IMG/VR virus record: IMGVR_UViG_2740892106_000001
Reading direction: 5' to 3' (one strand)
DNA length: 42,783 nucleotides
DNA from: a virus
Taxonomy: Duplodnaviria; Heunggongvirae; Uroviricota; Caudoviricetes
The position numbers were made by a program. Within the stretch, counting starts at the first letter, position 1; every line of letters starts with the position of its first letter. Positions 27,001 through 30,000 of this stretch are shown here, piece after piece.

Positions 27001-30000
27001 TTCAGTATGCGCGCACGTGTGGCATCCCATTTCGAGCCATAGCCACGCTGGTGGCGGCTCAGTCCGCGTTGATGCTGTACCCATCCTTCGCCACGATGTT
27101 TATCGCAGTAACCAGAACTGTCTGTGGTTGTACCTGCACATCCACGCTTACGGCAGGCGCGTGGGATTCGTGATGGCATAAATACCTCATACCCTGCGAA
27201 ATGTTTACCACGATAAAAAGGCTACTTAATGCACTGAGTGCGGATATATTCCTGCGCCCCTTCCAGTTGCATCTGCATCGTCATCAATCGGTCTCTGAGG
27301 GTGAAATAATCCCGTTCAGCGGTGTCTGCCAGTCGGGGGATGGTTGCATTATCCACGCTGGTGGGTCCGGTGGCTTCACGCACGGCTGCGGAGCAACTGG
27401 CATTGACCCGCAGGCGCTTACGGCCAGCGGCAACATCAGCGCGCAGAGTTTCATTTTCAGCTTTCGCATTGGCTAATTCTCTCGAGTACTTTGCATCGAG
27501 CGCAGCAACATCACGCTGACGCTGCTGCATGTCAGCGATGGTGGCGATCGCCTGCTTCAGCTCACTGACTTTTTTATCACGTTGTTCTTTGTAGGCGATG
27601 GCGTTATCACGGTAATGATTGACCGCCCACGACAGGCAGACGATAGTGCAGATAACCAGAGCATAAATAATCGCGGCGACTCTGCTCACTGATCTATTCC
27701 CCAACAGGCTAATGCGCTTTCCTGGTCACGACGAATAACCTGACCGTAACAGTTATTTGAACGAATGCGGCAATCACGGCCACCGTCCTTAATCCACCAG
27801 CGAATCGCCTCGCATGCACCTTTACGATCACCAGCATTCAGCCGCTTATAAAACGTCGACGGAAAACACTTACCGGGGCCAATGTTATAGGGACAAAATG
27901 ACGCGATACCCGCTTTTTGTGGCTCGGTCAGTGGTACTTTAATATTGCGCTCCACCCATGCCAGCGCCTTATCACGCTCAATGGCGTTGACCTGGTCGCA
28001 TTTTTCCTTCGACAGTTTCATACCGGGAAAAACGGGGTTTCCATCCACCATCGTGGCACCCCGACAGATGGTCCAGATGCCGGACCCATCGCGGTATGCC
28101 GTTGTGTGGTTACCTTCTTTTTCATCCAGAAACTGGTCGAGAATATCAGGCGCGGACGCACCGACGGCAATCAGTGCCAGAACGGCAGCCGACAGGCCGT
28201 ATCTGATTTTTGCGTTCATGGATATTTATCAGGATTTATCGGTTTCTGCCCACGGACAGGTTTATCTGTTCCGGTCAGTGACTTAAGGTTGTGATTCCGG
28301 AGGAGTCTTCAGAGAACCAGTAATTCTTCCTAGTAGCTTTCCTTTGTAGGTTATCCACACATTCTGCGCATCTAAAATTACGGGGCGCTTTTCCGGCGAC
28401 TGCTCATCCCCTTCACATAAGCCGGCAGCAACATCCAGGAAGACCTGTCTGATGCTCCTTCTGGCTGCTGCCTCATAAAACTCCAGCGCGGCACCTTCAA
28501 CACGGTCCAGCGAGATGTCCAGGTCAAAAATTTCACCGTCAAAGCGTTTTTTGTCCCGTAACGCTAAAGTTACCGTAACTTTATTCTCAAAATTGCGGAT
28601 CCCTTTCACAATCAGTTCATAGTTTTGAGTCATTGAATTACTCTCCCCGTGCAGCCTTACGCTTGTCTTCTCTGATTTTGAAGTACAGATTTGTCAGATA
28701 AGTCAGGAAGCCCAGAACCAGACTCCCCAGTACACCAATCGCAGCCCACTGTGAAGGACTGACCTGATCAAGCCACTGTAAAAACCAGTAGCCAGCACTG
28801 CCTGCGGAGGTGCCGTAGGCAATGCCCGTTGAAATTTTGTCCATGGATTTCATAGCCTCACCTCCGCAAATAACGGATGGCGTAGTTTTACACTGAGAAA
28901 TGAAAGGGATTTGAAAAGAAAAACCCGCAAAAGCGGGCGAAACGATATATACAGAAAGGAAAGCACTCTATCCAACAAACCAACCACAGTTAATCGGAAT
29001 AAAAGCAGAGTGCTTATGAATGATCGCCTGCCCGAAGGTTAGTATTTCTGCACAGCAATTTTGCAAAAAAAGGCGATCATTCATAACTTAAACGTCTTTC
29101 AGTCACTCCGGGATTTCCCATCATCGCAGACTGAAAGACTCTAACTGGAGCGGGCAGCGGGAATCGAACCCGCATCATCAGCTTGGAAGGCTGAGGTAAT
29201 AGCCATTATACGATGCCCGCATATGGTGCCGACTACCGGAATCGAACTGGTGACCTACTGATTACAAGTCAGTTGCTCTACCTACTGAGCTAAGTCGGCA
29301 CTGGACCGCCACCGGGGACTCGAACCTCGCACACTCAACTTAAAGGGTTGACGCTCTTTCCTGATGAGCTAGTGGCGGTTGGTGGCCCTTGCTGGATTTG
29401 AACCAGCGACCTGGCGATTATGAGTCGCTCGCTCTCACCACTGAGCTAAAGGGCCGGGCGCAGGATAATAACGTTACGAAATCAATGTTGCAAGCATTCA
29501 AAAATCACCTGGTTAAAAATCACCCTTACCTCCTCCACCAGCGCATTCACCATGTCTATCCGAGATAAGTGGCATAAAAAAACCCGCTTGTGGGCGGGTT
29601 TTGTTTGCTTTTGCCATCACGTACAAAATCGGCAAAATATCAGATTTGCATGAAATATATGCCTTTCAATCTACTTTTGCAACACTTTGCTTTGAAAATG
29701 CCGCCTTTTGTTTTGAACGTGTTCTCATTACAAACAATAAAGCCTCACTATCCAGTCGGTGAAAAATGTGTTTCATTGCAACCCAGTGACGAGTAAATGT
29801 TTTGGACCAGTTTTTAGTTGTCACTCCCGCCAGTAATGCCAGCTCCTGGTATTCATAACCTTCCCCACCAAAAAGTTCTGCTTTTACTGCCTGCGCCGCC
29901 AGCCAGATTAATTTTTTCAGGCGTTCCTGCGTTTTCCCTGCAATTTTTCTGGTAACGGATTGAGTATTAAATTCATTCCACGCCCACTGTGTTATCGCGA

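Follow-up and report, generated by a model that had tools for sequence, protein, structure and literature searches.

An argN-family tRNA gene with a lysine anticodon and C33 in a cdt-carrying lambdoid prophage: descent and possible role

Introduction

The IMG/VR virus record IMGVR_UViG_2740892106_000001, a stretch of 42,783 nt referred to here as the window, represents a lambdoid Escherichia coli prophage that carries the genes of the cytolethal distending toxin (cdt) and adjoins zinT. Four minus-strand tRNA genes are packed into its late region, and the second of them, termed X throughout, raises the question addressed here: from what does a tRNA gene descend, and what may it be used for, if it presents the lysine anticodon UUU in a loop with C instead of U at position 33? 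A sequence-only reading of the window had offered a decayed tRNA, a tRNA with altered decoding or a tRNA-derived regulatory or processing element, and these are still the live options. The present work places first, tentatively, the proposal that X is an Arg-to-Lys anticodon-shifted tRNA, which may act as a nuclease-insensitive surrogate of tRNA-Lys(UUU).

The tRNA-cutting defences of bacteria (PrrC, RloC, PARIS, P2-OLD, Schlafen and HepS) and the tRNAs with which phages counter them form an active field, in which the countering tRNAs have so far come almost all from large virulent phages (T5, T4); X is a candidate from a temperate lambdoid phage. If X works in this manner, a phage could convert an arginine tRNA into a "lysine" tRNA by a single anticodon change, and breaking the U33 rule could be adaptive, since it would switch off the modification N6-threonylcarbamoyladenosine (t6A) and remove the PrrC site. 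Should X only be decaying, it would amount to a routine annotation caveat. An Arg(UCU) sister and a canonical U33 relative, both described below, are ready-made controls for X. The gene is already annotated, as tRNA-Lys, whereas its origin and possible role are new: the papers searched gave no description of the origin of X, of its C33, of the Arg/Lys allele pair or of a role of Lys-type tRNAs in lambdoid phages, and nothing on ileZ, argN and argO.

Results and Discussion

Structure of X

ARAGORN predicts exactly four minus-strand tRNA genes in the cluster (29455-29146), with boundaries equal to those drawn in the sequence-only reading and spacers of 1, 2 and 3 nt; CCA is encoded in all four. 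X comprises 77 nt, CCGCCAC-UA-GCUC-AUCAGGAAA-GAGC-G-UCAAC-CCUUUAA-GUUGA-GUGUG-CGAGG-UUCGAGU-CCCCG-GUGGCGG-U-CCA, and matches the Rfam tRNA model (RF00005, gathering score 29) over its full length (model positions 1-71) with 44.4 bits and an E-value of 2.3e-6 over the whole window. It had been described as a tRNA-like element, which was right as to its atypical character yet too cautious, as ARAGORN, Rfam and the Prokaryotic Genome Annotation Pipeline (PGAP) all call it tRNA-Lys(UUU). It is scored as a tRNA, a cloverleaf with stems of 7, 4, 5 and 5 bp, in the very fold first proposed for it, neither as a canonical tRNA under an alternative fold nor as no tRNA at all. The peculiarities listed at that time (C33, a C1-G72 acceptor end, an A-C mismatch in the T stem and the anticodon region CCTTTAA) are all present, and U73 is an additional one.

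The 7-nt anticodon loop CCUUUAA consists of C32, C33, U34-U36, A37 and A38, and U34-U35-U36 is the anticodon of tRNA-Lys(UUU). U8, A14, G18G19, T54-T55-C56, the TTCGA T-loop, A37 and the encoded CCA are conserved, while position 15 is U and position 48 is G, a swapped Levitt pair common to the family of X. The departures from a canonical elongator tRNA-Lys are C33 in place of U33, the discriminator U73 in place of A73 (some relatives have G73 or A73), after an acceptor stem CCGCCAC/GUGGCGG that begins with C1-G72, and a nonstandard pair, A51·C63, in the T stem CGAGG/CCCCG. This mismatch is not disqualifying, because argN of the Shiga toxin (Stx) phages has the same one and the T stem of the host thrU itself has A52·C62.

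Three other views of the structure were rejected. ViennaRNA places a rod-like fold at the minimum free energy (MFE), with the cloverleaf of X only 2.7 kcal/mol above it, a distance also seen in genuine tRNAs (2.2 for the host lysT, 3.8 for ileZ). Folds in a slid register are disfavoured by the covariation described below, which supports the cloverleaf instead, and a suppressor or frameshift tRNA is excluded by the 7-nt loop and the UUU anticodon.

Descent from the argN/Arg(UCU) family

The body of X is unlike that of the host lysT and aligns with argN and with phage tRNAs of the Arg(UCU) type. Judged from alignment and position, X is a homologue of the Stx-phage argN, and is a member of that family by descent, not by decoding (U35, not C35). 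The tRNA-Arg(UCG) gene argN occupies the same slot, immediately behind an identical ileZ with Q, pR' and tR' upstream of it, and shares with X the acceptor stem (C1-G72), U73, the D arm and the T arm including A51·C63; its Rfam score is 43.0 bits, compared with 44.4 for X. Thus C1-G72, U73 and the A·C mismatch, which might have been taken for hints of decay, are family traits, since argN has them too, and the features specific to X are only the UUU anticodon and C33. The two genes differ in the anticodon loop (UCG with U33 in argN, UUU with C33 in X), in the pair 30-40 (G-C in argN, which keeps a paired CNG motif, A-U in X) and in what follows, namely argO and stx in the Stx phages (ileZ-argN-argO-stx) and copies of thrU and glyT after X. 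The statement of the sequence-only reading that the content differs from ileZ-argN-argO therefore holds for the anticodons, yet it missed the homology, by which slot 1 is ileZ and slot 2 belongs to the argN family.

A pattern scan of IMG/VR recovered at least 120 loci. The pattern required the T arm and the 3' acceptor strand, so that the scan says nothing on how far these are conserved. Among the matches listed, 62 loci have the architecture CAU-[X]-Thr-Gly and 21 the sister architecture CAU-[Arg UCU]-Thr-Gly. The Arg(UCU) sister has the same 1-2-3 nt spacers, the same neighbours and the same anticodon stem (UCAAC/GUUGA), and its loop, CUUCUAA, differs from that of X only at positions 33 (U to C) and 35 (C to U). 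It differs further by a fully paired T stem (A51-U63) and a discriminator G73 or A73, and its Rfam score is 56.4 bits. In an alignment of 12 family alleles, with a mean column identity of 91%, 98.4% of the cells are paired and the cloverleaf is maintained by two-sided changes at pairs 3-70, 4-69, 30-40 and 51-63; the unpaired cells are only A·C at 51-63, an intermediate between G-C and A-U.

The relatives of X that have UUU with U33 are only three among the matches listed (L129, L211 and L213, from one IMG/VR contig and two metagenome contigs). They have the loop CUUUUAU, a G51-C63 pair that repairs the T-stem mismatch and a compensated U4-A69. As such a canonical relative exists, the anticodon change from UCU to UUU likely preceded the change of U33 to C. 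UUU has also appeared elsewhere. In 5 IMG/VR loci among the matches listed (including L054 and L118) it lies on a thrU scaffold (G35U and A26G) and replaces Thr(UGU), and this gene, named tRNA-Lys by PGAP, is found in 6 of 5426 complete E. coli genomes (H124-H129). A sister lineage with A33 has the UUU loop CATTTAA in 7 of the IMG/VR loci listed.

The A33 lineage (L004, which is Yersinia phage YeP1, L016, L019, L042, L084, L114 and L194-L208) separates its D and anticodon stems by two nucleotides, and all its members lie below the Rfam threshold. Other loops in it are CATATAA (14 loci among the matches listed) and, once each, CATTGCT, CATTGAT, CATTATT and CATTGCC; these four single variants sit on identical bodies, so that change is concentrated in the loop.

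Recruitment of a tRNA gene by an anticodon point mutation, from Arg to Thr, was reportedly obtained in laboratory E. coli by Saks, Sampson and Abelson in 1998. The likeness is that a change of position 35 within U-N-U shifts a tRNA among four boxes, Arg(UCU), Thr(UGU), Lys(UUU) and Ile(UAU), and that UCU, UUU and UAU occur in the family of X and its neighbours, with UGU to UUU on the thrU scaffold. The present case differs from the laboratory one in its natural phage population and in the extra U33C.

X and the tRNA-cutting defence nucleases

The anticodon of X is that of the tRNA most often attacked by defence nucleases of E. coli. The host tRNA-Lys(UUU) is the target of PrrC and RloC (PMC2610378) and of AriB, the nuclease of PARIS (PMC11464382, PMC12409363), and it is the top target of the bacterial Schlafen nuclease RorSlfn5 (PMC13056530); P2-OLD, a classic block to lambdoid phages, cuts it secondarily (PMC12445682). 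AriB requires U36-A-A-U39-C40/A41 together with U16, as cleavage is lost with U39A and impaired with A41C or U16C (PMC12409363), and X has G39, U40, U41 and C16 at these positions. The cleavage site of P2-OLD is a paired CNG motif, at positions 28-30 and 40-42 (PMC12445682). In X these positions read CAA/UUG and in argN (L003) CAG/CUG; the paired motif is also kept in some Arg(UCU) alleles (L123, L126), and in X and the main Arg(UCU) sister it has been lost on both strands through the compensatory change of pair 30-40 from G-C to A-U. PrrC cuts 3' of U33 (PMC2610378), so that C33 alters its cut site. C33 also bears on the positive determinant of PrrC, which PMC12409363, citing Bacusmo 2018, gives as t6A, as the E. 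coli enzyme TsaBCDE leaves a U33C tRNA unmodified (PMC8887486). C33 is the one change to affect both. As far as its sequence tells, X is thus without the published determinants for AriB, P2-OLD and PrrC.

These features suggest a possible route to an insensitive lysine tRNA. A change of C35 to U in a gene of Arg(UCU) type would turn UCU into UUU on an Arg-family body, and X would then present UUU on a body and an anticodon arm that lack the elements by which tRNA-Lys(UUU)-destroying nucleases of E. coli recognise their target. Transcribed late, it may be a cleavage-insensitive reader of AAA and AAG. C33 would change the nucleotide at the scissile bond of PrrC, and it would probably prevent the formation of t6A37 and so remove the positive determinant of that enzyme.

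Two known phage systems resemble this proposal. Phage T5's tRNA-Lys(UUU) neutralises PARIS, and both resistance and rescue of infection have been demonstrated (PMC11464382, PMC12409363). Like X it has UUU and C16 and no U39, and positions 39-41 differ from those of the host at residues that AriB needs; it differs from X in being canonical, whereas X has an Arg-family body, C33 and U73, comes from a temperate phage and is known from sequence only. Variants of phage tRNA-Thr(UGU), including that of the lambdoid phage 21, rescue from P2-OLD, while the host tRNA-ThrU gives little or no protection (PMC12445682). The resemblance is to a lambdoid tRNA of the late region in which anticodon-stem changes remove CNG, as in X and the Arg(UCU) sister. 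The Thr(UGU) of the window, in contrast, is the unaltered host sequence and is predicted to be sensitive, keeping the AriB site U36AAUCA41, U16 and the OLD motif CUG/CAG. A matched anti-PARIS/anti-OLD pair of resistant Lys and Thr tRNAs was accordingly considered for the window and rejected. No tRNA nuclease was recognisable among the ten window open reading frames (ORFs) scanned with Pfam, a scan that was not defence-specific.

A Thr(UGU) allele with U16C and U20C was seen in L010 and 22 other IMG/VR loci among the matches listed, mostly together with the Arg(UCU) architecture. In tRNA-Lys, U16C in the D loop impairs cleavage by AriB (PMC12409363).

Distribution, diversity and the question of decay

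The 421-nt cluster region is covered to at least 80% in 553 of the 5426 complete E. coli genomes, and sequences of the X family occur in 798 (about 15%), with an identity to the window allele of at least 99% in 279, of 95-99% in 474 and of 90-95% in 45. Among species-representative genomes the family was found only in E. coli and Shigella flexneri, and the isolated phages that carry X are vB_EcoM-606R7 (the exact allele), PhiR47_1 and Evi. The window allele is the major one in IMG/VR (44 copies among the matches listed) and stands in mosaic flanks. Intact X is named tRNA-Lys by PGAP in hundreds of genomes and is already in RefSeq. The annotation of such genes is inconsistent, as PGAP names intact copies and skips about half, and other pipelines skip intact ones too.

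Several observations weigh against a functional lysine tRNA. U33 is near-universal and shapes the U-turn of the anticodon, and C33 should reduce decoding; the loss of t6A37 should be particularly harmful to a UUU anticodon, as work on the tRNA-Lys anticodon stem-loop indicates. A73 is an identity element of lysyl-tRNA synthetase, and with U73 in its place it is uncertain whether X is charged with lysine, and it may be mischarged. Among the four cluster genes, X scores lowest with Rfam. When 40 of the 798 E. coli records were sampled at even spacing, 21 alleles proved to be unannotated; these have U8C with two stem transitions, or a 1-nt deletion in the D stem, and fall below the Rfam threshold. 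A prophage 97.6% identical to the window has a further T-stem mismatch in X. The nucleotide diversity of X (pi = 0.0245) is 2-6 times that of its neighbours (0.004-0.016). The Thr(UGU) gene, being identical to that of the host and keeping the AriB and OLD sites, shows that the cluster does not form a set matched for resistance. Lastly, AGA and AGG make up 24% of the arginine codons in the phage and 61% in cdt, and with such heavy use the giving up of an Arg(UCU) tRNA looks costly.

Much of this evidence would also be expected if X were a decaying paralogue of the argN/Arg(UCU) type, made non-decoding by C35U and U33C and carried along in a compact, co-spreading operon. This, the main rival reading, is somewhat less probable than the first, yet to be taken seriously. 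It is favoured by C33, U73 and the low covariance-model score, by the further damage in about half of the E. coli alleles, which PGAP leaves unannotated, by a diversity that is the highest of the four genes, by the replacement of Arg(UCU) against heavy AGA use, and by the RAST-style annotation of the isolated phage 606R7, which omits even the intact X. Yet the window allele keeps every stem and the conserved tertiary nucleotides, its cloverleaf matches those of genuine tRNAs in stability, and the T-stem mismatch has been repaired in two different ways in relatives; moreover, at least two further scaffolds acquired UUU, which is unexpected under random decay.

The polymorphism within X bears on the same choice. 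C33 is present in every X-lineage allele, and positions 33-38 are invariant in about 85 IMG/VR loci among the matches listed, which counts against decay, but the tally itself required C33 and UUU, and the absence of change there (about 0.1) is not significant. Changes in the stems, suggestive of a kept structure, comprise 8 that preserve pairing and 3 singleton breaks, so that every recurrent change keeps pairing; among the stem transitions, 8 of 10 keep it (one-sided binomial about 0.055), and nearly all of them are C to U on the sense strand. A C-to-U bias of this kind, from transcription-linked deamination, could mimic the pairing-preserving pattern. The flanks, being mosaic, are unusable as a neutral yardstick for the diversity of X.

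The significance of C33 may also be viewed beside the initiator tRNAs of multicellular eukaryotes, which have C33 and are functional; C33 blocks the formation of t6A37 by the E. coli and yeast enzymes (PMC8887486). The comparison differs in that these are initiators with a co-evolved modification machinery, whereas X is elongator-like and C33 is rejected by the TsaBCDE of its host.

X as a possible non-decoding RNA

It is unlikely, in the light of the same data, that X is a tRNA-shaped RNA without a decoding role, either as processing punctuation or as an uncleavable mimic of tRNA-Lys that occupies Lys-specific anticodon nucleases. As punctuation, a cut by RNase P at the 5' end of X would make the 3' end of ileZ, 1 nt away, and the 1-3 nt spacers and encoded CCA imply that no tRNA is processed independently of its neighbour; however, the neighbours could be matured by RNase P at the downstream thrU copy together with 3' exonucleases even if X were unfolded. 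The degenerate alleles keep the anticodon arm, and their T arm and 3' acceptor strand are intact, but the survey pattern required the latter two, which inflates their apparent conservation. The identical bodies of the A33 lineage with CATTGCC, CATTGCT, CATTGAT or CATTATT point to loop-focused change and not to general decay. As for a decoy, the authors of PMC12409363 raise the inhibition of AriB by competition from overexpressed viral tRNAs, yet X lacks the AriB and OLD elements and would bind these enzymes poorly, so that its role would be limited to loop-reading enzymes such as PrrC; an RNA decoy of an anticodon nuclease is also without known precedent.

A narrower form of the decoy, in which X and perhaps the whole non-U33 branch present a UUU loop without t6A that remains uncut at 33/34 and holds PrrC or RloC, is improbable on this evidence. 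If true, it would be an RNA anti-defence decoy of temperate phages, present in about 15% of E. coli genomes, and an arms race with such enzymes would have left its mark in the loop-only diversification of the A33 lineage.

Codon usage and the ordinary tRNAs of the cluster

Codon usage, which the sequence-only reading had suggested comparing with the anticodons supplied, was counted over the 55 ORFs of the window. ACA (17.0 per 1000 codons), GGA (13.9), ATA (9.8) and AGA (8.9) are used about 2-4 times as often as in E. coli K-12, and more often still in cdt, whereas AAA (34.9) is about equal to its K-12 value. The comparison thus bears out an enrichment of the codons read by slots 1, 3 and 4, while AAA is host-like. 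The supply of tRNAs for A-ending rare codons is probably reason enough for the ileZ, thrU and glyT copies, which would top up the reading of AUA, ACA and GGA. Rare-codon supply was rejected as a reason for a Lys-type X, as the phage uses both AAA and AAG much as its host does, and six lysT-type genes are present in E. coli already.

Slot 1 has exactly the sequence of the gene annotated as ileZ (tRNA-Ile) in the Stx2 phage AP012530 and is of the AUA-reading Ile2 type. The genes of slots 3 and 4 are separated by 3 nt, while tyrU and two spacers (125 nt in all) separate thrU from glyT in the host operon. Their base-for-base identity with thrU and glyT, which the sequence-only reading had overlooked, and this spacing suggest, at the level of sequence, a recent capture from the leader of the host tufB operon followed by a precise loss of tyrU.

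The setting of the cluster

The order of the late region, Q, pR', tR', the tRNAs and a holin-sized ORF (Table 1), agrees with the placement of the cluster between a tR'-like terminator and the lysis genes in the sequence-only reading. The pR'-like site lies just 3' of Q, as in lambdoid phages. A second, sigma-70-like promoter, also overlooked in that reading, belongs to the cluster itself, and its hexamers are kept in related loci (L007-L126) with diverged surroundings, as TTGCA-N18-TATTAT-N9-GGCCC; the retention of both hexamers amid diverged sequence is a phylogenetic footprint of a real promoter. The terminator-like site before the holin gene is plausibly the end of the transcripts that this promoter drives. 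The cluster, its four tRNAs preceded by a dedicated promoter and followed by a terminator, thus looks like an autonomous operon nested within the late operon. With a promoter of its own ahead of the tRNAs, expression in the lysogen independent of Q may occur, and it could be boosted after induction. The 292-nt spacer between tRNA-Gly and the holin-sized ORF (28854-29145, minus strand) is unusually structured (MFE z = -5.3), and its place is occupied by stx in the Stx phages.

Table 1. Features of the window, ordered by position
Feature	Position	Strand	Basis and remarks
zinT	275-925		followed by cdtC, cdtB, cdtA
cdtA, cdtB, cdtC (cytolethal distending toxin)	4200-1995	minus	
Tail-fibre assembly gene	4474-5055		
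DUF1327/YdfR-family gene	28283-28633	minus	downstream of holin-sized ORF
Holin-sized ORF	28638-28853	minus	position matches class II holin annotated in related prophages
Terminator-like hairpin and T-run, before holin gene	28915-28938	minus	terminator scan; putative function
Perfect 16-bp hairpin	29014-29086	minus	repeat search
Perfect 11-bp hairpin, directly after tRNA-Gly	29094-29139	minus	repeat search
Slot 4, tRNA-Gly(UCC)	29146-29220	minus	ARAGORN; Rfam 64.9 bits; 100% identical to K-12 glyT
Slot 3, tRNA-Thr(UGU)	29224-29299	minus	ARAGORN; Rfam 73.8 bits; 100% identical to K-12 thrU
Slot 2, X, atypical tRNA with argN-family body and UUU	29302-29378	minus	ARAGORN tRNA-Lys(ttt); Rfam 44.4 bits; PGAP tRNA-Lys
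Slot 1, tRNA(CAU), Ile2 type	29380-29455	minus	ARAGORN; Rfam 72.5 bits; PGAP tRNA-Ile; same as ileZ of AP012530
Sigma-70-like promoter of the cluster, TTGCAA-17-TATTAT	29465-29493	minus	consensus scan; ends 9 nt before first tRNA
tR'-like intrinsic terminator, CCCGC-loop-GCGGG then seven T	29572-29602	minus	sequence reading and terminator scan
pR'-like late promoter, TTGCAA-17-TATATT	29654-29682	minus	consensus scan, 9/12 matches; putative function
Late antiterminator Q gene, 231 aa, upstream of cluster	29666-30361	minus	Pfam PF06323 Phage_antiter_Q, E = 1.3e-90

The leader between pR' and tR' (29577-29650, minus strand) gives weak isrK/isrJ-like Rfam matches of 22.7-24.5 bits, below the threshold, and a full isrK match (77.5 bits) lies at 1804-1880 of L010, 1.1 kb upstream of the tRNA cluster of that locus. 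A prophage of E. coli HS13-1 (L001) with an identical tRNA cluster has an annotated QueH at 888-1553, in the nin region; QueH is an epoxyqueuosine reductase, a tRNA-modification enzyme.

Other features of the prophage

Further RNA elements of the window were matched by Rfam. IS009 is found with 195.8 bits at 4514-4712, inside the tail-fibre assembly ORF, the sok antitoxin RNA at 33039-33213, close to where related genomes have an annotated hokD, and the DicF small RNA at 39567-39618. On the opposite strand of the early region, an ORF of 444 aa with an FRG domain (33839-35173) could be a moron or a defence gene.

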